Source: Squatina squatina
Taxonomy: Eukaryota
Direction: 5' to 3'
NCBI GenBank assembly: GCA_031763465.1
Contig: JARFOE010000008.1
Coordinates: 31,115 to 95,114, forward strand
DNA: 64,000 bases
A program made the position numbers and the translations under genes. Below the pieces are notes generated by a model. That model was not told the DNA's origin. It saw only the letters and a list, made by a program, of their open reading frames with translations, and did not search any database. Positions within the stretch are counted from its first letter, which is position 1. Every line of letters begins with the position of its first letter. Positions 8,508 to 56,066 of this stretch are shown here, piece by piece.

Positions 8508-11500
8508 TGTGTAACAGACACAGGCACAAAGTCTTGTGTAATATAACCAGAGGCAGGTTCTTGTGTTATATAAACAGTCGCAAAGTCTTCTGTAACGTAA
8601 ACAGAGACAGGGTCTCGTGTAATAAAACCAGAGACAGGGTCTAGTGTAATTTAAACAGAGACAGAGTCTTCTGTCTTCTCCACAGAGAAGCAGTCCACAT
8701 AATGGACAAAGACACAAAGTCTAGCGCAATATAAATAGAGACAGGGTCCAGTATAATATAAATAGAGACAGGGTCGAGTGTAATAGAAACAGAGACAGGT
8801 TCCAGAGTCATCTAAACAGAGATTTTGGGTTATGTAATATAAACAGAGACAGGGTCTTGTGTAATCCAACCAGAGAAAGGGTCTAGTGTAATTTAAACAG
8901 AGACAGGGTCTTCTGTAATATCAACGGAGATGCAGTACACATAATGGAAACAGACACAAAGTCTAGTGTGATATAATTAGAGACAGGGTCTTGTGTAATA
9001 CAACCAGAGACAGGGTCCAGTTTAATATAAACAGAGACAGGGTCTTGTGTAATACAACCAGAGACAGGGTCCAATTTAATATAAACAGAGACAGGGTCTC
9101 CTGCAATATAAACAGAGACAGGGTATTGTGCAATATAAACAGAGACAGTGTCCAGAGTATATAAACAGTGATATTGTCTCATTTAATATAAACAGACACA
9201 AGGTCTTGTGTATTATAAACAGAGACAGAGTCTAGTGTAATATGAACAGAGACAGGGTCTAGTTTAATATAAACAGAGACAGGATCTTGTTTAATATAAA
9301 CAGAGACAGGATGCAGTGTAATATAAACAGGGACATGGTCTTCTGTAATATCAACAGAGAAGGACTACATATAACGGAAACAGACACAATGACTAGCGTG
9401 ATATAACTAAAGTCAGCGTCCAGTATAATATAAACAGAGACAGGGTCGAGTGTAATATAAACGGAGACAGGATCATGTGTAATATAAACAGAGACAGAGT
9501 CTCATGTAATGTAAGCAGACACAGATTCCAGTGTCGTATATACCGAGACAAGGCCGAGTGTAATATAAACAGAGACAGGATCCAGAGTCTTGTAAACCGA
9601 GATATTGTCTCCTGTAGTATAAACAGAGACAGGGTCTTGTGTAATACAACCAGAGACAGGGTCTTGTGTAATATAAATAGAGACAGTGTCCAATGCAGTG
9701 TTAATAGAGAAAGGGTCTATTTTCATGCAACCAGAGACAGAGTCTTGTGTAATATAAACAGAGACAGGATCTATTGTAATAAAACCAGAGACAGAGGCTA
9801 GTGTAATATAAACAGAGACAGGGTCCAGTGTAGTATAATCAAAGACAGGGTCTACTGTGATACAATCAGAGACAGAGTCTCATGTAATAAAAACAGACAC
9901 AGGGTCAAGTGTAATACAACCAGAGACAGAGGCTCGTGTAATGTAAACAGACATAGGGTCTTGTGTATTATATCTGATACAAAGTCCAGCGATATAAACA
10001 GAGACAGGGTCCAGTGTAATATAAACACAGAGAGGATTTTGTGTAATATAAATAGACACAAAGTCCAGCGTGATATAAACAGAGATAGGTTCTTGTGTAT
10101 AACAACCAGAGACAGGATCTAATGTAATAAAACCAGAGACAGCGGCTAGTGTAATATAAACAGAGACAGGGTCCAGTGTAATTTAATCAAAGACAGGTTC
10201 TACTGTGATACATTCAGAGACAGAGTCTCATGTAATAACAACAGACACAGGGTCTANNNNNNNNNNNNNNNNNNNNNNNNNNNNNNNNNNNNNNNNNNNN
10301 NNNNNNNNNNNNNNNNNNNNNNNNNNNNNNNNNNNNNNNNNNNNNNNNNNNNNNNNCAGTGTATTATAAATAGAGACAGGGTTTAGTATAATATAAACAG
10401 ACTCGGTGTCTGGTTTAATATAAACACAGACAGAGTCCAGTGTAAAATAACAGAGACAGGGCCTGGTTTGGTATAACCAGAGACATGCTCCAGTGTAATA
10501 TAAACTGTGACAGGGTTTTGTGTAATGTGAACAGATACAGGGTTGAGTGTGATACAAACAGAGGCACAGCGTAGTGTAATATAAACAGAGACAGGGTCTA
10601 GTGTAATATAAACAGAGACTGGGTCCAGTGTAATATAAACAGACACAGGGTCAAGTGTAATATAAACAGAGACTGGGTCCAGTGTAATATAAACAGAGAC
10701 AGAGTCTAGTGTAATATAAACAAACACAGGGTCTAGCGTAAAATAAACAGAAACTAGGTCCAGTGTAATATAAACAAAGACTGGGTCCAGTGTAATATAA
10801 ACAGAGACAGGGTCTAGTGTAATATAAACTGAGACAGGATTGAGTATAATATTAACTGATATAGGGTCCACTGGAATATAAAATGAGACAGGGTCTAGTG
10901 CAACAAACTGAGACAGAGTTTAGTACAACAAACTAAGAAAATGTCTTGTGTAATATAAACAGAGACAGGGTCCAGTGTAATATAAACAGAGACAGAGTCC
11001 AGTCTAATATTAATAGAGACAGGGTCCAGTGTAATATAAACTGAGAGAGGGCCTTGTGTATTATAAACAGAGACAGGGACCAGTGTATTATAAATAGAGA
11101 CAGGGTTTAGTATAATATAAACAGACTCGGTGTCTGGTTTAATATAAACACAGACAGGGTCCAGTGTAAAATAACAGAGACAGGACCTGGTGTAGTATAA
11201 ACAGAGACATGCTCCAGTGACAGGGTCTTGTGTAATGTGAACAGATACAGGGTTGAGTGTGATAGAAACAGAGGCATAGCGTAGTGTAATATAAACAGAG
11301 ACAGGGTCTAGTGTAATATAAACAGAGTCATGGTCTAATGTAATATAAACAGAGACTGGGTCAAGTGCATTGATAATTGAAACAGGGTCTTGTATAATAT
11401 AAACAGAGACAGAGTTTGTGTAATATAAACAGAGACAGGATCTAGTGGAATATTAACCGAGATAGGGTCTCGTGAAATATAAACAGAGACAGGGTCTAGT

Positions 11501-12779
11501 GGAATATTAACCGAGATAGGGTCTCGTGTAATATAAACAGAGACAGGGTCTAGTGTAATATAAACAGAGACAGGTTCTAGTGTAATATAAACAGAGACAG
11601 GGCCTAGTGCAATATAAACTGAAACAGGGTCTCGTATAATATAAACTGAGGCAGGGTCTAGTGTAAAATAAATAGAGACAGTGTCTAGTGTAATATAAAC
11701 AGAGACAGGGTCAAGTTTAATACAAACAGAGACAGTTTCTAGTGTAATATTAACAGAGATGGGGTCTCGCGTAATATAATCTAAGAGATGGCCTCGTGTA
11801 ATATAAGCAGAGAAAAGGTCTAGTGTAATATAAACAGAGACAGGGCCTAGTGCAATATAAACTGAAAAAGGGTCTCATATAATATAAACTGAGGCAGGGT
11901 CTGGTATAAACTAAACAGAGACAGGGTCTAGTGTAATATAAACAGAGACAGGGACTTGAGTAATATAAGGAGACTGGGTCAAGTGCATTAATAATTGACA
12001 CAGGTTCGAGTATAATATAAACAGACAGGGTCTGGTGTAATACAGAGAGAGACAGGGTCTAGTGTAATATAAACAGAGACAGGGTCCAGTGTAATATAAA
12101 CAGAGACTGGGCCAAGTGCATTAATAATTGAAACAGGGTCTCATAATTATAAACCGAGACAGGGTCCAGTGTAATATAAACAGAGGCAGGGTCCAGTATA
12201 ATATAAACAGAGACAGGGTCCAGTGGAATATAAACCGAGACAGTGTCTAGTGGAATATAAACAGAGACAGGATCTAGTGTAATATAAACAGAGACGGGGT
12301 CCAGTGTAATATAAACAGAGACTGGGCCAAGTGCATTAATAATTGAAACAGGGTCTCGTAAATATAAACCGAGACAGGGTCCAGTGTAATATAAACAGAG
12401 GCAGGGTCCAGTATAATATAAACAGAGATAGGGTCCAGTGGAATATAAACAGAGACAGTGTCTAGTGGAATATAAACAGAGACAGGATCTAGTCGAATAT
12501 AAACAGAGACAGGATCTAGTCGAATATAAACAGAGACAGGGTCCAGTATAATATAAAATGAGGCAGGGTCCAGTATAATATAAACAGAGGCAGGGTCTAG
12601 TGGAATATAAACAGAGACAGGATCTAGTGTAATATAAACAGAGGCAGGCTCCAGTATAATATAAACAGAGACAGGGTCTAGTGGAATACAAACTGAGACA
12701 GGGTCTAGTGGAATATAAACAGAGACAGGATCTAGTCGAATATAAACAGAGACAGGATCTAGTCGAATATAAACAGAGA
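8508..12779. repeat. 27-bp tandem satellite (AAACAGAGACAGGGTCTAGTGTAATAT)n
   Basis: Well over 100 diverged copies, interrupted by a gap at 10257-10356. It produces spurious ITLDPVSVY / YYTRPCLCL ORFs. Confidence 0.95.
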
Positions 12780-13205
12780 NNNNNNNNNNNNNNNNNNNNN
12801 NNNNNNNNNNNNNNNNNNNNNNNNNNNNNNNNNNNNNNNNNNNNNNNNNNNNNNNNNNNNNNNNNNNNNNNNNNNNNNNTTCTCACTTATAGGATGCCAT
12901 CATTTCCAGTAATTTAATAACGTTCATCATATCCATCCATTTACAGGATTCAGTTTCCCTCTCTGATCTATGCAATTCTGCATCTTGGCACCTCAGGGAT
13001 CTTTCGTACTACTGGCTTCCAAAGATTTCAGAGAGGAACTTCACCCAGTCTGAATCAGTAAGACAGGAATAACGTGATTGAGACCCAACTGAGAACTTCA
13101 GCAAATCATAATCTTACTGGAGAGTCTCAACTGTTTTTGGACAATATCGACTTATTACTCCCACATTTGTCAACGGTTGCTCTTTATTAATTGACGTAAC
13201 ACCAA

Positions 13206-14180
13206 ATGGCTACTTTTGTGAGTTGGAATGAAACGGTTACCGGATCCTGGGCGGAGATCAACTCATCCAATCAGACTGCGTCCTCGATGGACAATGCCTA
13301 TGATGCAGCGGCTCGGATCAAAACAATCCTTCTTCCCTGTTTCCTTAGCTTAGTAGTTGTATTGGGCATAACTGGGAACTCAATTGCACTGTGGCATATC
13401 ATAGGAATGAAGCAGGTATCATCAGCAAGTGATGTCCTCTTGCTTGACTTAACCATCATAAACATTATGATTATCCTGGCTTCTATACTTTCCTTTATTC
13501 AATTGATACCAGGAAGTGGATTAGTGGAATCATTCCGTGATGCCAGTGTCCTCTTGCATCTATTCAACCTTTACGGCAACCCACCCTTCATGACCTGCAT
13601 TGCTATTGACCAATTCATTGCTGTTGTCCACCCAATCAGGTCTCAAGCCTGGAGAAGGCCACGATACTACGTTGTTCTATCCATTGCCACTTGGCTGGTA
13701 GTGTTGTCCCTGAGCCTGGTGGCCTTTTACATAACGAGAAACCAAATAGCTGGTGAAGTTTCATGCAAGGACATGCAGTTATCATGGAGACCATGTCAAA
13801 TCTTTATGCTATTTTCTGAAATTATATTATTTGTCATCCCAGTCCTGATCCTGTTGATGTGCTATGCCCTGACAGCAAATAAACTGATCAAAGTGGGAGC
13901 TGGGAAGGAATCAATGGAACTGATGAAGAAGAAAGTGCTGAAGACCATTGGGGCAATCTTGGCTCTTCTTCTTTTCTGCTTTGCCCCTTATCACATCCCT
14001 GAACTGTATTTTGAGATTAAGGATCTGCTAGATCCATTGGATCCAGTCTCAGATTTTTACAGGTGCAATGTAAAACTTTACACCTGGACCCTCACTTCTA
14101 TCACTGCCTTCCTCAATCCCTTGCTGTACATTTTCAGGTCCCAGAAGTTTCAATGGAGACCATGCTGCTGCTCTGTGTAA
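13206..14180 (+). CDS. Intronless class A GPCR, P2Y/LPAR6/CysLT-like delta group, with atypical motifs
   Basis: 324-aa ORF with seven hydrophobic segments and N-terminal N-glycosylation sites. Motifs: GN (TM1), NLYG...CIAIDQFIAVVHP (TM3), W (TM4), FVIP...CY (TM5), CFAPYH (TM6), LNPLLY (TM7), and a C-terminal CCC. Confidence 0.9.
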   Translation: MATFVSWNETVTGSWAEINSSNQTASSMDNAYDAAARIKTILLPCFLSLVVVLGITGNSIALWHIIGMKQVSSASDVLLLDLTIINIMIILASILSFIQLIPGSGLVESFRDASVLLHLFNLYGNPPFMTCIAIDQFIAVVHPIRSQAWRRPRYYVVLSIATWLVVLSLSLVAFYITRNQIAGEVSCKDMQLSWRPCQIFMLFSEIILFVIPVLILLMCYALTANKLIKVGAGKESMELMKKKVLKTIGAILALLLFCFAPYHIPELYFEIKDLLDPLDPVSDFYRCNVKLYTWTLTSITAFLNPLLYIFRSQKFQWRPCCCSV

Positions 14181-20235: not shown

Positions 20236-21614
20236 AGTAGGAGCAGGAGTAGGCCATTCGGCCCGTTGAGCCCGCTCTGCCATTCAATTGGATCATGGNN
20301 NNNNNNNNNNNNNNNNNNNNNNNNNNNNNNNNNNNNNNNNNNNNNNNNNNNNNNNNNNNNNNNNNNNNNNNNNNNNNNNNNNNNNNNNNNNNNNNNNNCA
20401 TTAGTCCATGGCTGTGGGTCATGATTTTATTACATGCTGAAGGGAAGGTCAGCATCCTGAACCGTTAACTCGGTTACTCTCTCTCCACAGATACTGCCTG
20501 ATCTCCTGCGCATTTTCAGCATTTTCCACTTTTATGTCAGATTTCTAGTCCCTGCAGTATTTTGCTTTTGTTTTATTGCATTGTTCACAGAACCGAGTCT
20601 GAAAAAACAGAGCGACCAGTTCAGAACCGGTCTGTATCAGGGTGGGCGATGATGAGGAAGTCGGTCCCTGGCCCTCCTGTGTCGGTCTGTTTGTTGCATC
20701 AGTTTGAGCTGGAGTGGAGATGGAGGAGAAGTTGCTGGGCTTAACCCCGAGTACTTCTGAACCCTATAGGGCCCAACAATTTCCGATGTGAGAGTGTTAA
20801 TGGAGGTCGATTCTAGGAGAGATTAGGTTGCTAACCAGACACTGTCTGTACAATGTAAAACAGTATTTAGGGACAAGAATTGCTGTAGTTTAATTTACAG
20901 ATTTATTTTCATTCATTCTTGGGATGTGGGTATCATTAGCAATGCCAGCATATATTTCCATTTGCCCCTTGACGACGTGATGATGAGCTTTCTTCATGAC
21001 CAGCTGCAGTCCATGTGGTGAAAGTATTCCCACACTGCTGTTAGGGAAGGAGTTGCAGAATTTTCACCCAGTGATGAAGGAACGGCGATATATGTCCAAG
21101 TCAGGATGGTGTGAGACTTGGAGAGGAACTTGGTGGTGATGGTGTTCCCATGCACCTGCTGCCCTGGTTCATCTTGGTGGTAGGGGTTGCGGGTTCTGGA
21201 GGTTCTGTCAAAGTACTGGTCGACTTGCAGATGTATAAAATCACTCACCTTCACCCCATGCACCTCTCTCTCCTCCCATAGAGGCCCGAGTCTTGTGTAG
21301 GCCCAGAACAGGTGGCAGATTCCCTTCCCTGAATGACATTAGTGACCATTTGGGTTTTTATGACAATCTGGCAGCTTTCACGGTCACTTTTATCGAGTGC
21401 CGGCCCCACGAATAACCAGATTCATTGAGCTCAATTTCACAACCTGCCTTTGTGTTTTTTGTGGGTTCTCTCTCACCCTTTTTCCTGTTTGAAATTCATG
21501 TTACAGGGTGTTGGATAGGGAGGATTTGTGACTGGAAGCTCAAACCAAATAGCACACCAAGATCTGACGGAGTCACTCGATTCACCAGGACTGGATTATT
21601 ATCGGCCTTTGAAC

Positions 21615-22316
21615 ATGGAAGCAAAAAGCACCGTTCACAGTGGGGAGAAACCATACATGTGCCCTGTGTGTGGACGAGGCTTCAGCCGATCATCCAACCT
21701 GGAAAGACACAAGCGCAGTTACACCGGGGAGAGGCCGTTCACCTGCTCTGAGTGTGGGAAGGGATTCATTCATTCATCCGACCTGCTGATACACCAGCGA
21801 GTTCACACTGGGGAGAGGCCGTTCACCTGCTCCGAGTGTGGGAATGGTTTTGTTCGGTCATCTGACCTGCTGACACACCAGCGAATTCACACTGGGGAGA
21901 GGCCGTTCACCTGCTCTGAATGTGGGCAGGGATTCACTCAGTCAACCAACCTGCTGAGACACCAGCGCATTCACGCTGGGGAGAGGCCATTCACCTGTTC
22001 AGAGTGTGGGAAGAGATTCACTTGTTCATCCCACCTGCTGACACACCAGCGAGTTCACACTGGGGAGAGGCCATTCATCTGCTCCGACTGTGGGAAGGGC
22101 TTCACCACATCATCTGACCTGCTAAAACACCAGCGAGTTCACACTGGGGAGAGGCCGTTCACCTGCTCCGAGTGTGGGAAGGGATTCACTCGGTCAACCA
22201 TCCTGTTGGCACACCAGCGAGTTCACACTGAGGAGAGGTCATTCACCTGTTCAGAGTGTGGGAAGGGATTCACTTGGTCATCTAGCCTGTTGAGACACCA
22301 GCGAGTTCACAAGTGA
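21615..22316 (+). CDS. C2H2 zinc-finger protein (7 intact fingers plus 1 degenerate, no KRAB visible)
   Basis: ATG at 21615 ([13 protein letters not shown]). Repeated CxxC...HxxxH fingers with TGERPF linkers, ending HK-TGA; AATAAA at about 22450. Upstream exons may extend the N-terminus. Confidence 0.88.
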
Positions 22317-24414
22317 CTGCAGTGGTTGGATTTTGCTGTTAATTACTTTCAGGACTGAGCCACGTTCATTCTGACAGTTGGGGTTTGTTTCTGCTGAATT
22401 TAATAACCCCAATAATTTGGCTGGAGTTTAATATTCTGGATAGATGTCAAATAAACCAGGTTTGCTTCAAACACATTNNNNNNNNNNNNNNNNNNNNNNN
22501 NNNNNNNNNNNNNNNNNNNNNNNNNNNNNNNNNNNNNNNNNNNNNNNNNNNNNNNNNNNNNNNNNNNNNNNNNNNNNGGGGCCCTCGACCTCCTGGACTC
22601 CACAGCTGCCATCACTTGACACTCAGAAGCACAGCACTTGCCAAAACAAAGGCTACTCATCACGCACGAGCTCAGAATTGACTGACCAAAACAGTACTTG
22701 AGTCTCCAGAAAAGCCCCTTTAAGGTATAAGCTGGCCTGACAAATAATTGCAGCTCCTTAGATCGGTTGGTGAATTGGCCCACTGAAACTAGTAAAGTTC
22801 AAACAGCGCTGATCAGGAACACATTTTCATTCATTTTTTAACCAGTTTTTAACCTGCCCAAAACGATTTCTCAAAGTGGCGATTACTGCAAAATAGTGGG
22901 GTAGCGCAAAACAGGTGCAAAAATTACACTTCTTGATCCCCTTGCATTTAAAACATAGGAAAGATCAATCAGGATCCATCTCTACTTCTGAATGTGCGAC
23001 ACAGGCTGAACCCAGAGCTGCTCCGTTTAAGATCAGGAAGCCTCATTAACATGGTCAAGTTGTCTGTTGCATCTTCCCTTTACCCACATCTGGCAAAACA
23101 ACTTTTCATGACCTAGTTTTTTGAGGGGAAAATGGAAAACCACAGGATGTTAGTAGTATTGATCAAATGAAATAAATTTCATGATGAAATATTTTGCGAT
23201 GGTAACCCCGAACAACAGTTTCCATTTAGTGCTTTTTGAGATAAGTGGAAGATGGCAGCATAACCTTCGATTGTATCAGTTATTTTAATGTTTCTCCAAA
23301 CCTTTGTGTGCTCGCTGTGTGTGAGAGTGGGAGAAGGGGTGTTGTAAAGCATTGGTAACAGTAGAAAAATAGAGAGGATAGCAATCCTGGAAATATCCCA
23401 ATCAGAAAGCGATTGAAATGTAACACGAGACAGTCAACATCTGAAGGAGAGGTCAACACTTTACTGGGAGAATTCAGCGGCTGAGAGCTTTTAAGATTCA
23501 TTAATTCACCGGCTGTTTTATTGAATAATTTTCATTTTTTTATCGGATTAATAGACCCTGGACACTATCCTTATATTCAGTGGAAAGGAACCTCTGGTGT
23601 AAATAAAACGATTTTCATCAACTTAAGATCAATCATTGCCCTTCAAACTCAAAGTACTATATTTTATTCCGGGTGCTATTTTTGCAATGTATTCACACAT
23701 TTTCTGAAAATGTAGCACATTTGCTTTCACCATAACGAAGTATTTAGCAGCGTGGTGCTTAATTCAAATCTCGCTGACACCTTCACTGAATTATCAATAA
23801 CGTATCCAGTCGTCCTGGTTCTAAAATACTTCCAATCGTACCAGTTCTTCAAATGAAACTGTTTGGTGCAGATGGTAGTCCTATTGGCATCGTGGACACC
23901 AGGGATAGTGAGAATCAGCAAGAGTTACTGCGACTAGGATATGACTTTAGTAATCTGTGTGTACATAACATGTGGGAACAGGAATCGGAGAGAGGAAGAC
24001 AAAATGCATTGATTGATAAATTCCACAAAATACATGTAAATTGAGTAGAAATACTTCTGACCAAAATAAGGAGACAAATCAGAATCTAACAGATTGCGGT
24101 GGAATAAAATTTGAACACCATAAATTTGAAAACATTCTTTAAAGTTCCGAGTTATCTGATACTAGGGTTTAATATTATTAAAATTCAAAGTGCTTTCTGC
24201 CGCTTGAACCACCTTGACACTCCTTTTCCTGACAGAGGTTAAAATAAAAGTGCTTTCTGCGACTTGTACCAACCTGAGGTTCATGTTTCTGAGAGTCCAT
24301 CCTGGCCATTCTGGAGAAACATCAACAGAAATCGGAATAAGAGTAATATCAAGATACTTGGAACCTTAACCATGATTTTTCGGGAGTTCTACTTAAATAT
24401 TCAAATTTACCATT

Positions 24415-24725
24415 TTCCCTCTCTGTCTCTTTCGCAACCGAGCTCTTTCTGTCTCTGACTCTCCACACTAAATCTCTCTCACTGTCTGTGTGTGTGTGTG
24501 TTTCTCTCTCTCTCTCTCTCTCTGCGTGTGCGCACATCTTTTTCTCTGTCTCACTATATCACTCACACACTCTCTCTGTCTCTGTCTCTCCGAGTGTCTG
24601 TCTCTCTCTCTCTCTCTGCGTGTGTGCGTGTCTCTTTCTCTGTCTCACTATATTACTCACTCTCTCTCTCTCTGAGTGTGTCTGGGTCCCTTTCTCTATC
24701 TCAATATTTCTGTTTCTCTCTCTCC
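24415..24725. repeat. (CT)n/(GT)n microsatellite-rich tract
   Basis: Visible TC/TG dinucleotide runs. Confidence 0.9.
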
Positions 24726-24999
24726 AGCGATTATATGTCAGTTATCACTTGCTGAAGTGAAGTGGAATGCGCCATCTGCACTGCCCCACCAACCATTTCA
24801 ACTTCCCATACAACACTGGTGAGATGCCGGATGAAGCTCCCTTTCTGCTGCCCCACTAAAGTCACTAATGTCAGCTACTGATTTGTGAAATGCCATGTGA
24901 ATTTATATGAATAGAGTTCCACCAGATGCTCAAACAGTAGCTTCAAAAAGTGTTGGAAGACAGTAATTCTTCGCAAAAAGCATTCATCAGGGACGTTTT

Positions 25000-25355
25000 G
25001 CACGAGTTAGATACAGAGTAAAGCTCCACCTACATTGTCCCATTAAACACTCCCAGGGCAGGTGCAGCAAGGGTCAGATATATAGTAATGCACCCTCTGC
25101 ACAGTCCCATGAAACACTTCCATAGCAGGTACAGTATCAGTTAGTTGCAGAGTGAAGTATCCTCCACACTTTCGCATCAAACAGTCCCAGGGTGGGTGCA
25201 GCATGGGTTAGATAACGAGTAAAGCTCCCTCTACACAATGCCATCAAACATTCCCAGAGCGAGAACAGCAAGTGTGAGATACAGTATAAAGCTCCCTGTA
25301 CACTGCGACATTGAACACTTCCAAGTCAGGTACAGCACGGGTTCGATACAGAAGA
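25000..25355. repeat. ~67-bp minisatellite, about 5.5 copies
   Basis: GTTAGATACAGAGTAAAGCTCCCTCTACAC...AAACACTCCCAGGGCAGGTACAGC recurs at about 25006, 25072, 25140, 25207, 25274 and 25341. Confidence 0.85.
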
Positions 25356-26199
25356 AGGTGTTGCAACAAACACTTACATGTCAGCTGCGGCAACCGTTAA
25401 ATAAATGTCAATGCTTCCTTTATTCCGCCCCATAAAAGACCATGATGTCGGGAGCACCATCGCTGATATGCAGAATATTTCAGATCGATCCTGTTCCTGA
25501 TTGAGCCGGAAACATACTGATCAAGAAGGTTCTTCGGAACACACGTCAGAAATTCTCCTCCCCCACCCGGCTTTTACCTCTGTTACTATCCCAATCTAAA
25601 CGTTAACAGTTTATTGCTCCCATTGTCACTACTTGATAGTTCTTGCACCTCTCTGTAATTTCCCTGTATGTTCCCTGTAAAGCGCCTTCTGGAGTCTTCT
25701 CACTAAGTGACAGCCTGCAGAATATATCTAGTAGTGCAATGGAAACTCTTTTTTTTCTAAGGCTCACTAACTAGATTTGTCCTTGTCCCATCCTGGACAT
25801 CGTCTCTCTCCAGCGCTGTAACATTCTCCTCAACCAATACTGGCACACCTCATCTTTTCTTTCCTTCCCTATCTTTCCCAAACTCCTGATTTCCAGGAAC
25901 ATTTAGTACGCAATCCTGCTCTTTCCTTAGCCAGTCTCCGTTATTTCCATGCATCATATTCCAATGTGGCTATTTGCACCTGAAGATCACCAACATTATT
26001 TCCCATGCTTCGTGCACATGCATGGTAAACCTCGATTAGACCTTCTCTATCAGTCTGACCTCACCTAATACCTTACTATTCTTTACTCTCGTGCTATCTC
26101 TCTCTCTCCCAACCCTTTGTGCAGTTTGTTTCTCCGTTCTGATTGTACGCTGTGGTGACCATCTGCAGCGAAATTAGTTGATACCTGCCCAACAGCGTG

Positions 26200-26527
26200 C
26201 ACAACGTATCTTGCTCTCATCCAGCCTCCCACCCACCCCCACCGCCAGAATATTGTTCCGTGCCTCTGTTCAGGTGCAACCCGTCCGGCCTGCACAGGTC
26301 CCACCTGCCCCAGAATCCGTCCCAATACCCCAGGATTCTAAAGCCCGCCCTCCTGCACCATCTCTCTCGCCACGCTTCATCTACTCTGTCCTGCTACTGC
26401 TGGGCTCACCAGCTCGTGGCACCGGGAGTGATGTGGAGATTATTACCTTTGATGTCCTGCTTTTTAATCTCATTCCTATCTCCCCAAAAATGCCTGCAGG
26501 AGCTAACCCCGCCTTCTATCTTGTTAT
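26200..26527 (-). mobile_element. CR1 LINE ORF1 (SGNH esterase) fragment abutting the last RSS
   Basis: The minus strand encodes degenerate RLKSRTSKVIIS..LPVPRA...W..RWCRRAGFRILGYWDGFWGRWDL..PDGLHLN, typical of the CR1 ORF1 esterase. Confidence 0.75.
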
Positions 26528-26816
26528 GGTTTTTGTACAGCTCTCTCCGTGCTCTGTCTCACTGTGTGTCTGTAATCCCCACCATGTTCAGGTTTTTGTA
26601 CAGCTCTCTCCGTGCTCTGTATCACTGTGTGTCTGTAATCCCCACTTTGTCAGGTTTTTGTACGGCTCTCTCCGTGCTCTGTATCACTGTGTGTCTGTAA
26701 TCCCCACTTTGTCAGGTTTTTGTACAGCTCTCTCCGTGCTCTGTATCACTGTGTGTCTGTAATCTCCACCATGTTCAGGTTTTTGTACAGCTCTCTCCGT
26801 GCTTTGTATCACTGTG
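26528..26816 (-). repeat. Tandem array of five perfect 23-RSSs
   Basis: Heptamers (CACAGTG on minus) at 26810-16, 26747-53, 26685-91, 26623-29 and 26560-66. Nonamers (ACAAAAACC) at 26778-86, 26715-23, 26653-61, 26591-99 and 26528-36. All spacers are 23 nt; periods are 63, 62, 62, 63. Confidence 0.95.
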
Positions 26817-27122
26817 CTGCGCGCGGACTCAGTGCACAGTAGTACACAGCGGATTCACTCAGTTGTACTTTCGCGATGTTTAACCGGCTGATTTTCTCGG
26901 CAGGATCGATCGAAGCAGAAATTCGGCCCCCTGCAGCGTTTTCTTTATTCCCCTCTCCTGAAGTGTGTCTCTGTAGCAGGTATTTCGGAGCCTGCCCTGG
27001 GGACTGACGGTACCAGTGTACCGTGTACTGACAGAACCCTGAATATTCGCAGCTTAATGTAACGGTGTCACCGACAGCAGAGGTTTGTAGAGGCGGACTC
27101 TGGGACACCGAGAAACTAGAAT
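26817..27122 (-). CDS. NAR-TCR supporting-type TCR delta V exon V5 (extra Cys in CDR1)
   Basis: Acceptor ttttaatcctgcag, then (D)SSFSVSQSPPLQTSAVGDTVTLSCEYSGFCQYTVHWYRQ...ESAVYYCALSPRA. Open frame, non-canonical Cys in SGFCQY, no functional leader, and an in-frame J lies upstream. Confidence 0.88.
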
Positions 27123-27645
27123 CTGCAGGATTAAAATGGATACTATTATTACTTTAGCTGCTGTTTACCCGGAGTCACTTGCCAATCACAGGAACAGTTC
27201 TGCCCGTCGCGCTAATGCTGTTCGTCATTCGAAACTATAATCACTGTCGTGGCCATAAGAATCGGTGCGGGAGCGAGGGGCAGATGAGGAGATTTCTTTT
27301 ATGCGGCCAGTTGTTACGATCTGGAATTCACTGCCTGAAAAGATGGTGGAAGCAGATTCAATCTTAACTTTCAAAAGGGAAATTGGATCATTGATGGAAA
27401 AGGACACATTTACAGGGCCACCGGGAAAGAGCACGGGGCTGGGACCAATTGGACAGCACCTTCAAAGAGCCAGCACCTGCACGATGGGCCGAGTGACTTC
27501 CTTTTGTGCTGTGTGATGCTATAATTCCTGTTACTTTTCTGTTTCTACTATTCTTGATGGAATATAAATCAGCTGAAATATTTAAATAGTACATCCTCCT
27601 CCTCACTGACAGGATCAGATTACATTGATGTTTGACCAGAGTTAC

Positions 27646-27702
27646 CCGGCTGTGCTATCACACTGCGCACAGCAAGATGCAAAATAAAACAGTGAGATTC
27701 AT
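27646..27702 (-). pseudogene. Inactivated leader exon relic of V5
   Basis: ATG at 27702 reads MNLTVLFCILLCAV, then TGA TAG; donor gtaact at 27645. The 57-nt length gives phase 0, but the V exon needs phase 1. Confidence 0.75.
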
Positions 27703-27965
27703 GAGCACCGATTGAGCAAAGCTGAAACTGCAAATCTGTGGGTCAAATGTCAATATTTACTGCAGTTTATCAGTTCAAGAGAGCTGCTGTCTGCCTCCCG
27801 CTCCATTTGACTCTTTTCTTCCGTCAATTAGGCCCATTTTGCTCCATTTTTCTTTCATTTGAATTATTTCTAAACTTTATTTCTACATCTGGGTCGCTCA
27901 CTTTGTGCTGTTTGCGGTTTTTTGCCAGCCTGAGAACTTGTGCCAAAGTCTCTCAATTGTCGGTT

Positions 27966-28004
27966 GGTTTCAGTCTCTGTAATTTCCGCAACGGGTTCAC
28001 TGTG
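27966..28004 (-). other. Orphan 23-RSS-like element
   Basis: Minus strand: CACAGTG (28004-27998), 23 nt, ACTGAAACC (7/9 match to the nonamer). No intact gene segment adjacent. Confidence 0.4.
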
Positions 28005-29934
28005 ACTCACTGGGAACTGGCGGCTCTCTGACAATTTCAATTCCTTCAGCCGATTGGCTGATTCTGTCCCGTGTTCTCCGGGCGGAGTTTCCTCTGAGTT
28101 TCCTTGATACAGAAACTGCAGAACAGGAACAAGCCATTCGGCCCGACCGCTCTGTGCCGGTGTCAATACTCCACACGAGCCTCCTCCCACTCTAAATACC
28201 TCTTTCCACCCTGATCCCTGTGTCCCTCCATTCCATTCTACATCCGGTATTTTTCAAGCCTCCCTTAAATGCAGCAACGCTGTCTGCTTTAACCACTCCA
28301 CGTGGCAGCTAGTTCCACATTCTGACGCCTCTCTGTGTAAATACATTTTTCCTCATGTCTTTATTTGTTCTGTTAGTGACTATATTATATTTGTGGCCTC
28401 TTGCTCCGGACTCAACGGCAAATGGAAAAAGTTTCCCAACGCGCAGCCTACCGAACCCCTTCATGATTTTAATGACCTCCATCAGCTCTGTTCGTTATCT
28501 TGTCTTTTCCAAAGAAAAGAATCCCAGGCTGTTCAATCACTCCAGGAATGTGTGGATTGCTGCTGCTGTCTTTTCTCGGGCGTGTAAGGAAGCCAAAACG
28601 AAGAGAAGGGCCGGAGTCCAATCACAGCCCTTCCCTCCAGTAAATCTTACTGCACCGGTGTCGAAGTGTGCTTTGAACGGCCCACAGCGCGGTGTCTCCA
28701 CAACCTGCCTGGCCGGTGAAGTCCGTTATTTCTCTGCCTTTCAGTTAATTCATTTTTGCTGATTCTGAGTGGACATTTCTTCAGACTGTACATGTTCCCT
28801 CGGGTGTTCTTCTTCTCCTTTATAGGAATATTAGATCCTCACCCTCACTCGCTCACTGCCCTGCGTTGTTTCCATTAACATTAACCAGGGATAAAGTTGC
28901 ATTTCTGCAATCTGATCTCTCAAACATCAACATTAAATAATACATAGAATTACACCTGAATGTAGGGCACAGAAGCAGGCTATTCATCACAACTGGTCCA
29001 GGCCTGTGTTCCTGCTCCACACGAGCCTCCTCCCACTCCTACTTCATCTCAGCCCATCAATATAACCTGATATTTCTATCGACCTCACGCAATTATCCAG
29101 ATTCCCCTGAAATGCATCTGTGTTATTCGGCACAACTGCTCCTTGTGGCAGCGAGTTCCGCCTTCTCACCACTCTGGGTAAAGAAGTTCCTTTTCAATTC
29201 CCTAATTGATTGATTAGGAAATTTATAACAATATAAATAATATAGAAAAGTTCTTAGCTTTTACATTTCAATTTAATCGGGAATACGGAGGGAAAATGAT
29301 TGTTTATGTAAAGGCAATTGGAGTAAATATCGGATACGATACAACTAATTTCAGTTACTGATTGCCCAATGATGAAATGCGATCGAGACCTCCAAGCGCA
29401 TCTGTTGTACCTGAAGCCCATTGTACTCCCGTTTTTTCGGCTGCTGCAGGTATCAGAAGGGCCGCTGTCCTGTTGCGTTCAATCTCCCGGTCCCTAATTC
29501 ACACTACCCGCCTGCCCAGGAAGTAGCTCTGTGACCTCCTCCCCTGCTCACAGGGACAGGCAGAGCTCCCTCAGTCACAGTTAACACCGAGAGTGGAGGC
29601 CGGAGTTTCGACAATCTGTGGTCATTTAAAACTAACCGGATCGGAGCGTCCGGGATGTTCACCGGAGACCCGAGGTCCCGGTAAAACCAATGAAGGTCCA
29701 GATGGGGTCAAAACCCCCAGCCTGATTTCTCCGTGGTGGTCTCGCACCTCCTCTCTCCGGACTCACACACGGAACCGCTCCCGGTTCATATTGATTAATC
29801 TAAAACTACATTAGAAAATTTCCATGAGAAAACCGCTCGATTTTACTCCGAAGGTGATATTGATCACAATACTGAACTGATGGTGAATATTGATGGGGTC
29901 AGCCTGCAACTCATCGGGGTTTGGAGTCACTTAC

Positions 29935-29987
29935 CGGCTGTCACTGTCACCACCGTCCCGGATCCATCCTCATAGTAAGTCGCCCAC
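29935..29987 (-). CDS. IgNAR-like (NAR-TCR) J segment
   Basis: 53 nt reading g-WATYYEDGSGTVVTVTA-g, then donor gtaagt. It has D-G-x-G-T in place of F/W-G-x-G, as in VNAR FR4. Confidence 0.9.
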
Positions 29988-30026
29988 CACAGTGACACCG
30001 CTCTCAGTCACCCCGGTACAAAAACC
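29988..30026 (-). other. 23-RSS 5' of the J segment
   Basis: Minus strand: GGTTTTTGT (30026-30018), 23 nt, CACTGTG (29994-29988). Perfect consensus. Confidence 0.93.
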
Positions 30027-30248
30027 ACCGACACCTCAAACTGCCGTCCGCTCATCACCAGACAGCTGGCGCGGTCCAATTATTCCCGGGATCAATAAAC
30101 AATATTCCATGTTCCACAGTCCCCGTCGGTTCAAACTGTTCTTTGTGANNNNNNNNNNNNNNNNNNNNNNNNNNNNNNNNNNNNNNNNNNNNNNNNNNNN
30201 NNNNNNNNNNNNNNNNNNNNNNNNNNNNNNNNNNNNNNNNNNNNNNNN

Positions 30249-33170
30249 CCTGTCTCTGTTTATATTACATGAGAGAATATCTCTGTTTATATGACTCTGG
30301 ATCCTGTCTCTGTTTATATTACACTAGACCCTGTCTCTGTTTATATTACACTAGACTCTGTCTCTGATTGTATTACACTAGACCCTGTCTCTGATTATAC
30401 TACACTTGACCCTGTCTCTGGTTGTATTACACAAGACCCTGTATCTGTTTATATTGCACTGGACGCTGTCTCTATTTTATTGCACTGGACCCTGTCTCTG
30501 GTTTTATTACACAATACCCTGTTTCTGTTTATATTACACTGGACTGTGTCTCTGGTTGTATTACACTAGACCCTGTCTCTGTTTATATTGCACTAGGCTC
30601 TGTCTCTGGTTGTATTACACTAGACCCTGTCTCTGTTTATATTACACTGGACGCTGTCTCTGTTTACATTGCACAAGACCCTGTCTCTGGTTGTATGACA
30701 CAAGACCCTGTGTATGTTTATATTACATGAGACAATATCTCTGTTTATATGACTCTGGACCCTGTCTCTGTTTCTATTACACAAGACCCTACCTCTATTT
30801 ATATCACACGAGACTTTGTGTCTGTTTATATGAGACATGACCCTGTGTCTGCTTATATTACACTAGACCCTGTCTCTGGTTTTATAACACAAGACCCTGT
30901 GTCTGTTTTAATTACAGAATACTTTGTGTCTGTTTATATTACACAAGACCCTGTCTCTGTTTATATCACACAAGACTTTGTGTCTGGTTATTTTACCCAA
31001 GATCCTGTGTCTGTTTATATTACACAAGACCCTGTCTCTGTTTCTATTACACAAGACCTTTCTCTGATTGTATTACATGAGACAATATCTCTGTTTATAT
31101 TGCACTGGACCCTATCTCTGTTTATATTACACTGGACCCTGTGTCTATTTATATTACACTAGACTTTGTGTCTGTGTTTATTACACTAGAACCTGTCTCT
31201 GGTTGTATTACATAAGACCCTGTCTCTGTTTATATTACACAAGACTCTGTCTCTGGTTGTATTACATTAAACCCTGTCTCTGATTATACTACACTGGACC
31301 CTGTCTCTGTTTATATTGCACAAGACCCTGTCTCTGGTTGTATTACACAAGACCCTGTGTCTGTTTATATTACATGAGACAATATCTCTCTTTATATTAC
31401 ACTGGACCCTGTCTCTGGTTGTATTACATGAGACAATATCTCTGTTTATATTACACTGGACCCTGTCTCTACTTATATTACACGAGACTTTGTGTCTGTT
31501 TATATTGCACAAGACCCTTTGTCTGTGTATATTATACTAGACCCTGTCTCTGTTTATATTACACTGGACCCTGTCTCTGGTTGTATTACACTAGACCCTG
31601 TGTCTGTTTATATTACACTGGACCCTGTCTCTGTTTATATTATACAAGACTCTGACTCTGGTTGTATTACACAAGACCCTGTGTCTGTTTATACTACACT
31701 AGACCCTGTGTCTGTTTATATTACACTAGACTCTGTCTCTGGTTGTATTACACTAGTCCCTGTCTCTGTTTATACTACACTGGACCCTGTCTCTGTTTAT
31801 ATTACACAAGACTCTGTCTCTGGTTGTACTACACAAGACCCTGTGTCTGTTTATATTACATGAGACAATATCTCTGTTTATATGACTCTGGATCCTGTCT
31901 CTGTTTATATTACACTGGACCCTGTCTCTTTTTATATTACACGAGGGCCTGTGTCTGTTTATATTACACTAGACCCTGTCTCTGTTTGTATTACACTTGC
32001 CCCTGTCTCTGTTTGTATTACACTGGACCCTGTCTCGATTTATATTACACTGGACCCTGTCTCTGGTTGTATTACACAAGACACTGTGTCTGTTTATATC
32101 ACATGACAGAATATCTCTGTTTATATGATTGTGGAACCTGTGTCTGTTGATATTACACTGGTCCCTGTCTCCATTTATATCACACGAGATCCTGCCTCTG
32201 TTTATACTACACTGGACCCTGTCTCTGTTTATATTACACTGGACCCTGTCTCTGGTTGTATTATACAAGACACTGTGTCTGTTTATATTACATGAGACAA
32301 TATCTCTGTTTATATGAATCTGGACTCTGTCTCTGTTGATATTACACAGGACCCTGTCTCTATTTATATCACACGAGACCCTGTCTCTGTTTATACTACA
32401 CTGGACCCTGTCTCTGTTCATATTACACTAGACCCTGTCTCTGTTTATAATTCACAAGACCCTGTCTCTGTTTGTATGACACTAGACTTTGTGTCTGTTT
32501 ATATTACACAAGACCCTGGCACTGTTTATATTACATGAGACCCTGTCTCTGTTTATATTACACGAGACCCTGTCTCTGTTTATATTACATGAGACCCTGT
32601 CTCTGTTTATATTACACAAGACCCTGTCTCTGTTTATATTACATGAGACCCTGTCTCTGTTTATATTACACAAGACCCTGTGTCTGTTTATATTACATGA
32701 GACAATATCTCTGTTTATTTGAATCTGGACGCTGTCTCTGTTGATGTTACACAGGACGCTGTCTCTATTTATATCACACGAGATCCTGTCTCTGTTTATA
32801 CTACACTGGACCCTGTCTCTGTTCATATTACACTAGACCCTGTCTCTGTTTATATTACACAAGACCCTGTCTCTGTTTATATGACACTAGACTTTGTGTC
32901 TGTTTATATTACACAAGACCCTGTCTCTGTTTATATTACATGAGACCCTGTCTCTGTTTATATTACACAAGACCTTGTCTCTGTTTATATTACACTGGAC
33001 CCTGTCTCTGGTTGTATTACACTGGACCCTGTCTCTATTTATATCACACTAGAATTTGTGTCTGTCTATAATACACTACACCCTGTGTCTGTTTATATTA
33101 CATGAGACAATATATCTGTTTATATTACACAAGAACCTGTCTCTGGTTGTATTACACTAGACCCTGTCTT
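30249..33170. repeat. 27-bp satellite, reverse orientation
   Basis: (CCCTGTCTCTGTTTATATTACACTAGA)n, the reverse complement of the unit at 8508-12779. Confidence 0.95.
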
Positions 33171-33371
33171 GCTATGAATGCTAACATACCATTTGCTTTC
33201 TTCACTGCCTGCTGTACCTGCATGCCTACTTTCAATGACTGGTGTACAATGACACCCAGGTCTCGTTGCACNNNNNNNNNNNNNNNNNNNNNNNNNNNNN
33301 NNNNNNNNNNNNNNNNNNNNNNNNNNNNNNNNNNNNNNNNNNNNNNNNNNNNNNNNNNNNNNNNNNNNNNN

Positions 33372-33906
33372 ATCTCACTGAACACAAGCATGTTCACACT
33401 GTGAAAGACCCTTCGTCTGCTCTGTGTGTGGGAAAGGATTCAGTAAATCATCTCACCATCTGAGACATCAGTCTGTTCACACGGAGGAGAGGTCATTCAG
33501 CTGCTCTGTTTGTGGGAAGGGATTCGCATGATCATGGAGTCTCACTGAACACCAGCGCACTCACACCGAGGAGAGGTCGTTCACCTGCTCTGTGTGTGGG
33601 AAGGGATTCACTTCTTCATCCCACCTCACTGCACACCAACTTGTTCACAGTGATAAGAGACCTTTTAAATGTTCTGACTGTGAGATGAGTTGTAAAAGCA
33701 AAAGTGACCTGCTGAAACACCAACGCACTCACACTGGGGAGAGATCATTCACCTGCACTATCTGTGGGAAGGGTTTCACTCGGTCATTCAGCCTCCGGAA
33801 ACACAAGCGAGTTCACAGTGGGGAGAGACTGTTCCCCTGCTCTGTATGTGGGAAGGGATTCACTCAGTCATCCAGCCTGCTGAGGCACCAGCGAGTTCAC
33901 AAGTGA
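33372..33906 (+). pseudogene. C2H2 zinc-finger gene 3' part with an internal stop
   Basis: About 6 fingers ending HK-TGA at 33906, with an in-frame TGA at 33529-33531. The 5' part is in a gap. Confidence 0.75.
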
Positions 33907-35039: not shown

Positions 35040-36321
35040 TTATCAAGAAACATAAAACAAAATAATAAAATATTCTGCAGACACATAAATAAAAAAAGGA
35101 AAGTTGCAGTGGGAATAGGCCACTAAGGGATGGACAGGATAAAATCACAAACAGCGATAACAAAAAGACAGAAATATTAAATAATTACTTTTACTTCAGT
35201 ATTTACTATGGAGACAGATCAGGCGGGCATGACATTGGAAGATGAAATTAGAAATGATATAAACGCATTTAAAATACAAAGAGGTTGAAATATTGAATAG
35301 ATTAATCAAACTCAAAGGATAAAACCCCTGGTCTAGACAGATTTCTTCTGTGCATCTCCAAAGAATCTGGAGAAGAGATAGCAGAGGCACTGTTACACAT
35401 ACTTAATAATTCTTTACAAAAAGTTGTAGTGCCAGAGGACTGGTGGATAGTTAACATAATACCTAGAGACAGAACATGTCCAAGGAACTACAGACCAGTC
35501 AGGATAACATTGGCTGTAGAAAAAAATAATAGAATCCAAAGGAGAATATAGAAAAACATCTAGAAACCAAAAATATAATAATGAATAGTCAGCATAGATT
35601 TCAAAAGGGAAAGTCTTGCTTGACCAACCTCATTGAATGTTTTGAATAGGTGACAAAGAGAATAGACAAGGGCAATACAGTAGATGTTATTTTTCTAGAT
35701 TTTCAAAAGACCTTCGATAAGGTAGCACATAATAGACTAATGAATAAGGTCAGCGAATGTGGAGTCAGGGGACAAATAACATACAAGTAGCTGGCTTCAA
35801 GACAGAAAGCAGAGAGTGGGGGTAAAAGGTAGCTCGTGACAGAAGGTGGGTAGTGGTATTCCACAAGGATCAGTGCTGGGACCACTGTTGTTTATATTAA
35901 CGTATTACACCAAATTGAGGAGGACTGCAACAAATTACAGGAAGATATTAATAAACTTACAGAATGGACATATAATTGGCAAATGAAATTCAACACAGAT
36001 AGGGAGGTCACTTATTACTTGGAGGGTGCGAGTCTGGGTGGGGTGGAGGGACAAAGCGATCTCGGAGAACAAATCCACAAATCACTAAAAGTTGCGACAC
36101 AGGTTAACAAGGTTATAAAAAAGGCAAAACAGGCACTCGGGTTTATTTCCAGAGGGATAGAGTTGAAAAGCAGTGAAGTTATGCTAAACTTGTATCACCC
36201 TTGGTTAGATCACACTAAGATTACTGCGTACAGTTCTGGTCACCATATTATAAAAAGAATATCGAGGCACTGGAGAGGGTGCAGAGAAGATTTACAAGGA
36301 TGATACCAGAAATGCGAGGGT
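35040..36321 (+). mobile_element. Degenerate CR1 LINE ORF2
   Basis: Matches NYRPV / SQH.F.KGKSCLTNLIE.F / FQKTFDKV / GIPQGSVLGPLLF / LGFISRGIE, with frameshifts. Confidence 0.85.
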
Positions 36322-36609
36322 NNNNNNNNNNNNNNNNNNNNNNNNNNNNNNNNNNNNNNNNNNNNNNNNNNNNNNNNNNNNNNNNNNNNNNNNNNNNNNN
36401 NNNNNNNNNNNNNNNNNNNNNCGGGGGATAAAAACAATGGCTTCGGTCTCCCCAATGTTCAATTGGAGAAAATTTCTGCTCATCCAGAACTGGATATCGC
36501 ACAAGCAGTCTGACAATTTAAAGATGGGAGGGTTCGAGAGAGGTGGTAGTGAGGAAGAGCCGGCTGTCATCAGCATACCATGGGGAAACTGATGTGTGAT
36601 TTCATGATC

Positions 36610-38470
36610 AATATAAACTGGGACAGGGTCCCGTGAAATATAAGCTGGGACAGGGTTTGCATTATAAACAGAGACAGGTTCCAGCAAAAGAAAACAGAGA
36701 CAGTGTCTCGTATAATATAAACTGGGACATGGCCGAGTGTAATATAAACAGACAGTGTCTCGTGTAATATAAACAGAGACACTGTCTAGTATAATAAAAA
36801 CAGACAGTGTCTAGTGTAATATAAACAGAGACACTGTCTAGTGTAATAGAAAGAGAGACAGGTTCAAGTTTAATATAAACAGACAGTGTCTAATGTAATT
36901 TAAACAGAGACAGGGTCAAGTTTAATATAAACAGAGACAGGGTCCAGCGAAAGAAAACAGAGACAGTGTCTAGTGTAATATAAACTGGGACACGGCCGAG
37001 TGTAATATAAACAGAGACAGTGTCTCGTGTAATATAAACAGAGACACTGTCTAGTGCAATAGAAAGAGAGACAGGTTCAAGCTTAATATAAACAGACAGT
37101 GTCTAATGTAATTTAAACAGAGACAGGGTCAAGTTTAATATAAGCAGAGACAGGGTCTAGTGTATTATAAACAGAGACAGGGTCTAGTGTGATATAAGTT
37201 GAGACAGGATCTCATATAATATAAGCAGAGACAGGTTCCCGTGTAATATGAACAGAGGCAGGGTCTATTGTAATATAAACAGAGACAGGGTCAAGTTTAA
37301 TATAAACAGAGACAGGGTCTAGTGTAATATAAACAGACAGGGTCTAGTGTGATATAAATTGAGACNNNNNNNNNNNNNNNNNNNNNNNNNNNNNNNNNNN
37401 NNNNNNNNNNNNNNNNNNNNNNNNNNNNNNNNNNNNNNNNNNNNNNNNNNNNNNNNNNNNNNNNNGTTCAACAGTAATATTAACAGAAACAGGGTCCAGT
37501 GTGATATAAACTGAGAATGTGTGTAGTGTAATATAAACTGAGACAGGGTCTCCTGTAATATAAATTGAGACAGGGTCTAGTGTAATATAAAAAGAGACAA
37601 GGTCTAGTGTAATATAAACAGAGACAGGGTCTAGTGTAATATAACCAGAGGCAGGTTCAACTGTAATATTAACAGAGGCAAGGTCCAGTGCGATATAAAT
37701 TGAGAAAGTGTGTAGTGTAATATAAACTGAGACAGCGTCTCCTGTAATATAAACAGAGACAAGGTCTAGTGCAGTAATAATTGAGACAGGGCAGCGTGTA
37801 ATTTGAATAGACATAGTCTAGTGCAGTAATAAACAAATCAGGACCTAGTGTAATATAAAATGAGACAGGGTCTTGTGCATTAATAAATGAACAGGGCTAC
37901 AGGGCGTAGCATAATATAAACAACGACTGGGTCCCAATGTAATATACACAGACAGGGTAATTGTAATTTGAGGAGAAGCTGGGTCTTCTGCAATATAAAT
38001 AGGAACTGAATCAAGTGTAAAATGAACAGAGACAGGGTCGAGTGTAGCATGAACAGAGTCTGGGTCAAGTGCATTAAAAATTGACACAGGGTCCAGTGTA
38101 ATATGAATAGAGACAGGGTCTAGTGTAATATAAACAGAGACAGGGTCTGGTGAAATATACAGAGACAGGGTCCAATGTGAGATAGGTACAGATGGGGCAA
38201 AACTAAAAATAATTGACACAGCGTCAGGTGTAATATAAAAAGAGACAGGGTCTAGTGTAACTTCAAAAGAGACAGAGTTTGGTGTAATGTAAACAGCGAC
38301 AGGGTCCAGCGTAGCATCAAAAGAGAAAGTGTCGAGTGTGATATAAACTGAGACAGGGTCTATTGTAATTTAAAGAGAGACAGGGTTTAGTGTAGCTTCA
38401 AATGAGACAGTGTCTAGTATATTAAAAAATGAGACAGGGTCTAGTGTAATGTGAAGAGAGACAGGGTTCT
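36610..38470. repeat. 27-bp satellite
   Basis: Same unit as 8508-12779, more diverged toward 38470; gap at 37366-37465. Confidence 0.92.
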
Positions 38471-41358: not shown

Positions 41359-41949
41359 TCACTTGTGAACTCGCTGGTGTCTCAGCAGGTCAGAAGACTG
41401 AGTGAATTCCTTCCCACACACGGAACAGATGAACGGTCGCTCCCCAGTGTGAACCCGCTGATGTGTCAGCAGGTTGGATGACCGAGTGAATCTCTTCCCA
41501 CAGTCAGAGCAAGTGAACGGTCTCTCTCCAGTGTGAACCCGCTGGTGTGTCAGCAAGTTGCCTGACTGAGTGAATCCCATCCCACAGTCGGAGCAGGTGA
41601 ATGGCCTCTCCCCTGTGTGAACAAGCTGGTGTTCAATCAGGTGGGATGACCGAGTGAATCTCTTCCCACACTCAGAGCAAGTGAACGGCCTCTCCTCAGA
41701 GTGAACTCGCTGGTGTCTCAACAAGTGTGATGACTGAGTGAATCCCTTCCCACACTCAGAGCAGGTGAACGGTCTCTCCCCAGTGTGAATTCGCTGGTGT
41801 CTCAGCAGGTCAGGTGACTGAGCGAATCCTTTCCCACAGTCAGAGCAGGTGAACAACCTCTCCCCGGTGTGACTGTGCCAATGAGCTTCCAGCCGCGATG
41901 GATAATCAAATCTCTTCCCACAGTCCTCACATTTCCACGATTTCTCCAT
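41359..41949 (-). CDS. C2H2 zinc-finger protein (7 fingers)
   Basis: ATG at 41949 (MEKSWKCEDC). Seven fingers with TGERPF linkers, ending HK-TGA at 41359; a degenerate finger lies upstream. Confidence 0.85.
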   Translation of the reverse strand: MEKSWKCEDCGKRFDYPSRLEAHWHSHTGERLFTCSDCGKGFAQSPDLLRHQRIHTGERPFTCSECGKGFTQSSHLLRHQRVHSEERPFTCSECGKRFTRSSHLIEHQLVHTGERPFTCSDCGMGFTQSGNLLTHQRVHTGERPFTCSDCGKRFTRSSNLLTHQRVHTGERPFICSVCGKEFTQSSDLLRHQRVHK

Positions 41950-42519
41950 GGTGCTAGTGTCCTGTGTCTCTCCAGGTTGGACAATCAGGTGAAGCCTCAT
42001 CCACACATAGAACACGTGTAGTTTCTCCCCACGGTGAATGGCGCAATGATTTTTCAGGCCATGTAACTGCTTAAAGCTCTTTCCAGTCTGTGCACTGGAA
42101 CACTCTCACTCGGGTGTGTGTGTCTCGGTGCTTTTCCAGTCACACTGATATCTGAAATCTTTTCTCACAAACCAAACAAACAAACATTTCTCCTTCCACA
42201 TTCAAAGGCTGATTATATTCAGATTCTGAAGAATCGGGTGACTCAGTCAGACCTTGATGTGATGTTTGGGTTGAGTTTCCTGTCTGTTAATCCTCCCCTT
42301 CTAATATCCTGAAAAAGGAGATTACAGAAATCAGCAGTGTGAGTACATGACAGAAATTCAGAAGACAACTCTAGATTCTGTGGGAAATTCTTTCCTCTCT
42401 TGTTCATCAAAAGCTGTGAAATCCCGTCCCACACATTTTGCCTCCTCCCTGTGCTAAATTTAAACACTTTGCATGTCTCAAGACAGTTTGTCCTCCGCTC
42501 CCAGTTTATCACCACCAAC

Positions 42520-51352: not shown

Positions 51353-51391
51353 AGTTTTTGTACGGGGGGTGAGACTGTTTCGATCACTGTG
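51353..51391 (-). other. 23-RSS of V7
   Basis: CACAGTG (51391-51385), 23 nt, ACAAAAACT (51361-51353). Confidence 0.93.
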
Positions 51392-51686
51392 AGTCCATGA
51401 GAGCGCAGTGATACACGGCAGCATCGGTCAGCTGCAGCGCGAAGATAGCTGCACTACCGAATTTCGCCGAGGTCTGGAGCTCTGCAGAGAAACGGATTCC
51501 GAAACCTTCTCCTCTCTGTTCCTCTGTGTCGAAAGACCGCCTCCTGATTAAAAACTGCGGTTCCTTCTCTGCTTGTTGCCGGTACCAATATAAATAATAT
51601 ATCGTGGCTGTAGTATTATAGGTGCATCTTATGGTCACCGCTGCACCTTCTGTCCTGCGCACTGAAGACTGGGACTGAGTAACAGA
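51392..51686 (-). CDS. TCR alpha/delta V exon V7 (5' end and leader in gap)
   Basis: SVTQSQSSVRRTEGAAVTIRCTY...WYRQQAEKEPQF...RFSAELQTS...DAAVYHCALMD; open frame. Confidence 0.88.
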
Positions 51687-54821: not shown

Positions 54822-54860
54822 CACAGAGACACAGAGCTGGGCTGCACCTGTACAAAAACT
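54822..54860 (+). other. 23-RSS of V6
   Basis: CACAGAG, 23 nt, ACAAAAACT (54852-54860). Confidence 0.88.
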
Positions 54861-55971: not shown

Positions 55972-56066
55972 CACAGTGACACAGGGAGAGATCTGTACAA
56001 AAACCTGAACATGGTGGGGATTACACACACAGTGATACAGAGCATGGCGAGAACTGTTCAAAAACC
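55972..56066 (+). other. Tandem pair of RSSs behind V9
   Basis: RSS1: CACAGTG at 55972, 18-nt spacer, ACAAAAACC (55997-56005). Linker TGAACATGGTGGGGATTACACA. RSS2: CACAGTG at 56028, 23 nt, TCAAAAACC (56058-56066). Confidence 0.88.

Follow-up and report, generated by a model that had tools for sequence, protein, structure and literature searches.

The locus described here raises the question of what kind of antigen receptor gene carries a J segment in front of a V exon. It lies in a 64,000-nt stretch of the Squatina squatina genome (contig JARFOE010000008.1, positions 31,115 to 95,114; hereafter the window) and consists of the following features, given in the direction of reading.

29988..30026, minus strand: recombination signal (RSS) of the J, with perfect heptamer and nonamer and a 23-nt spacer
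29935..29987, minus strand: NAR-TCR J segment of 53 nt, WATYYEDGSGTVVTVTA, with a phase-1 GTAAGT donor (from the sequence and a comparison of the J coding regions of five paralogs)
27123..29934, minus strand: J-to-V intron of 2,812 nt, zero N, with high-copy repeats inside and no leader exon near the acceptor
26817..27122, minus strand: leaderless supporting V-delta exon with a CDR1 cysteine and an open frame (from the phase-1 acceptor, the tree and the leader scan)
26778..26816, minus strand: perfect proximal 23-RSS of the supporting V, with a TGA in the V frame inside the heptamer (RSS scan)
26528..26753, minus strand: four further perfect 23-RSSs in tandem, with heptamers at 26753, 26691, 26629 and 26566

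An earlier note on this DNA had read the J, the intron and the V as half of a shark NAR-TCR cassette. That interpretation was supported by the segment order, the signals, the open frames, an upstream V and D, an intact paralog and the family identity, all of them observed; expression, splicing and rearrangement of this particular copy are predictions. It is very probable that the three elements form the 3′ half of a cassette in the order leader-NAR V-D-J-intron-supporting V-delta, likely encoding a two-V TCR delta chain. The NAR-TCR family has been known since 2006. The cassette is a further member of it, ordinary for sharks apart from the RSS array behind its supporting V.

The anatomy reported in the earlier note, namely a perfect 23-RSS on the minus strand, a 53-nt J with a gtaagt donor, a 2.8-kb intron in a gap-free contig and a phase-1 acceptor, was confirmed. 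J, intron and V belong to a single N-free piece (22578-30148, minus strand). The predicted splice is in phase 1 and gives in silico the read VTVTA-D-SSFSVSQSPP, as the note had it, with the frame open from the J to the end of the V. Six perfect RSSs with a spacer of 22-24 nt were found in the window, one at the J and five behind the V, vs. none in each of 100 shuffles. An RSS-like site at 28004 was rejected as a functional signal because its heptamer was altered in relatives. When the 20-aa J alone was searched against the PDB, matches appeared only at E ≥ 0.27 and were uninformative; the note's label "IgNAR-like" is tentative for the J by itself.

The J-to-V splice was also seen in a read contig of a relative. 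In run X21, positions 27123 and 29937 are joined in a 304-nt contig that has a single letter between them and 33 nt on the J side; the net 2,812 nt skipped make up the predicted intron. This junction appeared in one of the eight read runs aligned, among the joints listed, and the status of X21, a relative's run, as RNA is a guess; all runs compared were those of relatives (best share 0.09). In a second read alignment, there was no J-V joint among the 15 listed of 75 joints, and run X22 did not cover the J.

The V exon was compared with the other V segments of the genome. In a tree of 45 rows (29 of 128 genomic V matches plus 16 of 74 homologues, the rows from other species having been picked for similarity to the query), it fell among second domains of shark, ray and chimaera two-V proteins, with 99/99 support for the separation from 22 conventional Vs of this genome. 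A leader exon was found for none of seven supporting Vs and for 13 of 18 conventional Vs (600 nt upstream, score of at least 7); the conventional Vs had at least 196 nt upstream, four without any upstream sequence being left out, and three of the seven supporting Vs had only 87-363 nt upstream. The leader exon shortly upstream that marks a conventional TCR alpha/delta V was thus absent from the window V. These results bear out the note's view of this exon as a supporting V-delta rather than a member of a leader-bearing family. The CDR1 cysteine (CEYSGFCQY) was present in all seven family members of the Squatina squatina genome, which has at least eight supporting-V copies. Being leaderless, the supporting V needs a donor upstream.

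A second supporting-V paralog is found in the window at 55666-56066 on the plus strand. It is 78% identical with an open frame, and its J lies outside the contig. The spacer of its proximal RSS has 18 nt, and a second 23-RSS follows 56 nt further on. This paralog is likely non-functional.

The earlier note had predicted a NAR-type V and D beyond the gap at 30149. Such a V and D were found on an overlapping contig (C650582), and not in the scaffold past the gap, which continues into a satellite repeat. The overlap is the following feature.

30072..30148, minus strand: 77-nt contig end within the D-J interval; the same 77 nt close contig G000:C650582 and open the paralogous contig G000:C368884

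A search with the J region gave ten matches, one of which was the end of C650582. This contig carries a leader exon that splices in frame to its V, a V whose RSS has a 22-nt spacer, and a D of 13 nt flanked by two 12-spacer RSSs. With the 23-nt spacer of the J, the 12/23 rule is obeyed. Across the 77-nt overlap, V and D are 389 nt apart and D and J 380 nt. The V of C650582 is of the NAR type: VNAR or new antigen receptor was named in 23 of the top 26 rows of a PDB search (50 rows listed). It has an a-b loop cysteine at position 18, and GHFFRQ stands where the Trp motif is expected, so that the tryptophan of WYR is absent. Eighteen DNA matches to the V-D region were obtained in the genome, and the NAR-type V paralogs comprised L011 (which is C650582), L052, L053, L057 and L060.

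The 77-mer occurs in three contigs, upstream in C650582 and downstream in the window and C368884. Over 1.44 kb, contig C368884 and the window agree at 90.8% of positions; the mismatch persists at the far end of C368884, and a simple allele bubble was therefore rejected. Because the two J contigs are about 91% alike and have the 77-mer in common, the V-D of C650582 may serve the window J, its paralog, or both.

Another paralogous contig, C774625, holds the whole unit free of N: leader, V, D, J, a 2,751-nt intron and a supporting V, all with open frames. Its V-D spacing is 391 nt, its D-J spacing (380 nt) and its V, D and J signal geometry are those of the unit formed by C650582 and the window, and it aligns across window positions 30148-26714 at 76%. 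The satellite also occurs about 5 kb upstream of the leader of C774625, which fits, weakly, a collapsed piece in the gap of the window.

Here, three other explanations were weighed against the NAR-TCR reading. The first is that the cassette is one by descent and that this copy is dead or orphaned, the V-D being the paralog's or defective and the J-V pair never expressed. A single V-D contig faces two J contigs; the V of C650582 has an imperfect RSS and a cysteine in place of a nearly invariant tyrosine, two residues before the second canonical cysteine; several NAR-type V paralogs contain stops or frameshifts; and the proximal RSSs are damaged in two supporting-V paralogs. However, the RSS of the J and the proximal RSS of the V are perfect in the window, both frames are open, the splice sites are canonical, the CDR1 cysteine is kept, and the end branch of the window V (0.015) is the shortest of the supporting-V family in the tree. 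We consider a dead or orphaned copy unlikely.

The family identity was obtained from homologues in other species. With the white shark protein P0025 (LOC121270138), identity reached 76% for the upstream V and 79% for the window V, and this gene is labelled "NARTCRdV" by hand annotation in Table S1 of PMC12227049. In 51 of the 74 longer homologues the J motif was joined to a V of the supporting type, and in 36 of the 74 a NAR-type V preceded it; most of these are RefSeq gene models and do not count as independent proof. In the homologues P0043, P0046, P0062 and P0032, a second J and then a constant region follow. A search of the Squatina squatina genome for the constant domain with a first query gave no match, and a second constant-region search gave only transmembrane exons, among them one of the TCR delta/alpha type that lies on an unlinked 958-nt contig and is 81% identical to its counterpart in P0032. 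One supplement file of PMC3964593 contained no NAR-TCR text, and the other supplements of that paper may describe cassettes.

The second explanation assigns the J to an IgNAR antibody cluster, with more distant Ig constant exons as its splice partners and the V standing there by chance. Although the upstream V resembles VNAR and elasmobranchs have linked IgH and TCR loci (PMC12227049), the leaderless V would be left without the donor that it needs, the J-intron-V order recurs in C774625 and in the gene models of many species, and the annotated NARTCR V was matched at 76%. The two intron ORFs that reach 80 aa on the minus strand contained no Pfam family, and the homologous J-to-V splice in the relative contradicts such a cluster; neither result went against the note's interpretation. 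That this J belongs to an IgNAR cluster is very improbable.

The surroundings of the cassette contain other V segments, of mixed orientation overall, and further genes and repeats.

803-1117, 1382-1462 and 54523-54828, plus strand: conventional TCR alpha/delta-type V segments or fragments
1767-1937, 5142-5414, 51387-51656 and 53080-53338, minus strand: conventional TCR alpha/delta-type V segments or fragments
13200-14180, plus strand: rhodopsin-family 7TM receptor, a single ORF with a 326-aa frame (Pfam 7tm_1, E 5e-30)
21519-22316, 33532-33906, 41359-42105 and 58296-59396: C2H2 zinc-finger arrays among the V segments (recognized by eye)
8346-12900, 30249-33270 and 36292-38369: long arrays of a satellite of about 27 nt, the one also found upstream of the C774625 cassette

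Some of the conventional V segments have stops or frameshifts, and the order of segments separated by 100-N gaps cannot be relied on. The same scaffold holds, some 15 kb ahead of the window, an IgH-type VH with a 23-RSS and, after it, D segments bearing 12/22 and 12 signals (L015:4943-6344, in G000:C8:11115-21114), an arrangement that fits the known linkage of IgH and TCR alpha/delta. Repeated 12-spacer RSS-like sites in a short tandem repeat at L015:8422-9419 are probably a minisatellite.

The third explanation is a chimera in the assembly that brought J and V together. The assembly is fragmented and rich in repeats (1,152,659 contigs), the window is a chain of short pieces with 100-N gaps, and the intron holds high-copy repeats. 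This explanation is scarcely credible, since no N lies between J and V and C774625 aligns across the whole J-to-V stretch with an intron of its own. A chimera of two close paralogs is conceivable and would leave the architecture the same.

Two independent RAG rearrangements, followed by splicing to a three-domain delta chain, are described for NAR-TCR in PMC5931798, PMC12227049, PMC6795676 and PMC3457774. By analogy with this known biology, RAG would join the NAR V, the single D and the window J across their 22/12 and 12/23 spacers, and in a second event the supporting V would join a TCR-delta D-J via its proximal 23-RSS. The J would then be spliced to the supporting V, giving a chain of leader, NAR V, V-delta and C-delta. 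The a-b loop cysteine and the CDR1 cysteine, both present in the sequence, are predicted to link the two V domains by a putative disulfide, and the NAR V would likely bind antigen unpaired. The cassette adds one more shark to the NAR-TCR family. The germline anatomy gained comprises a single D between 12/12 signals, fixed distances from V to D and from D to J, and the supporting-V copy number.

The five RSSs behind the supporting V, an array absent from the earlier note, have a period of 62-63 nt and 95% identity between units. All five copies in the window are perfect. Among loci with downstream sequence (three were dropped for want of a heptamer or of downstream sequence), the first RSS was repeated within 200 nt behind all seven supporting Vs (local score 20-37 of 39) and behind none of 20 conventional Vs (score 5-9). 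The repeat was thus confined to the supporting-V family, in which the copy number ranged from two to five and some distal copies were degenerate.

Gene models of Hemiscyllium, Rhincodon, Pristiophorus and Pristis have read-through tails that resemble repeated RSS units, as protein rather than DNA. About five RSS-like units were read from the protein tail of an ENA record, and the aligned contigs of three relatives contained joints between array units. Comparable RSS arrays seem to be present in other sharks and a ray. In run X2, the summed depth was 17,000-39,000 over the array unit vs. about 350 over the V exon (window 26480-26848, runs X2 and X15); this hints that an RSS-like repeat has expanded greatly in the relative concerned, summed depth not being equal to copy number.

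The conservation of the units was then counted by position. In the seven proximal units, 48 of 49 heptamer, 63 of 63 nonamer and 141 of 161 spacer positions were conserved; the corresponding numbers in the 14 distal units were 92/98, 112/126 and 279/322, with 144/161 for the linker. Strong selection on the distal RSSs was rejected, as their heptamers and nonamers were barely more conserved than their spacers. Since the first heptamer puts a TGA stop in frame with the V, joining at any of the distal RSSs would yield a non-productive product. The conservation counts favour an old duplication kept by unequal crossing-over rather than by strong selection, although the five window copies are all perfect and the repeat is limited to this V family. 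The most likely status of the four distal RSSs is that of a tandem repeat specific to the family. A function of the array is possible and unsupported.

That the array is an ancient elasmobranch control element for double rearrangement seems doubtful to us. If it were, a distal join would spare the proximal RSS, and the array could in this way govern the frequency of NAR-TCR production; such a join could also bring the cassette beside the D-J-C-delta region before a second, productive join. To our knowledge, it is not settled how the two V(D)J events behind a single chain are coordinated in a T cell. The array is the part of this locus worth following, as a repeat limited to the supporting Vs that bears on the coordination of two V(D)J joins.

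Three known receptor systems invite comparison. NAR-TCR (NARTCR), the doubly rearranging TCR-delta of cartilaginous fish, has the same N-terminal IgNAR-like V with a leader, an a-b loop cysteine and no WYRK tryptophan, and the same leaderless supporting V-delta with a CDR1 cysteine and two separate rearranging segment sets. Both groups of marks are given for the NAR-TcR V and its associated V-delta in PMC1845163, and the architecture of the window cassette does not differ from them. The tandem RSS array behind the supporting V is a possible difference; no description of it was found in the portions of the literature searched, and the primary papers PMC1458790, PMC7039070, PMC7909615 and PMC3222143 may hold one.

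The IgNAR clusters have a related V domain and the same IgH-type RSS geometry, V(22)-(12)D(12)-(23)J. However, their J is followed by constant exons, whereas a V exon follows the J here. They also have three D segments, compared with the one D found in this cassette.

TCR-mu of marsupials and monotremes is the same kind of three-domain chain, in which a supporting V bears an additional, antibody-like V at the N-terminus. It is built as (V-D-J)-(V-J) units, and the marsupial supporting V is germline-joined (PMC3457774). TCR-mu is convergent, with its own locus and VH-like domains, and the supporting V in the window keeps its RSS, in contrast to the germline-joined V of marsupials.
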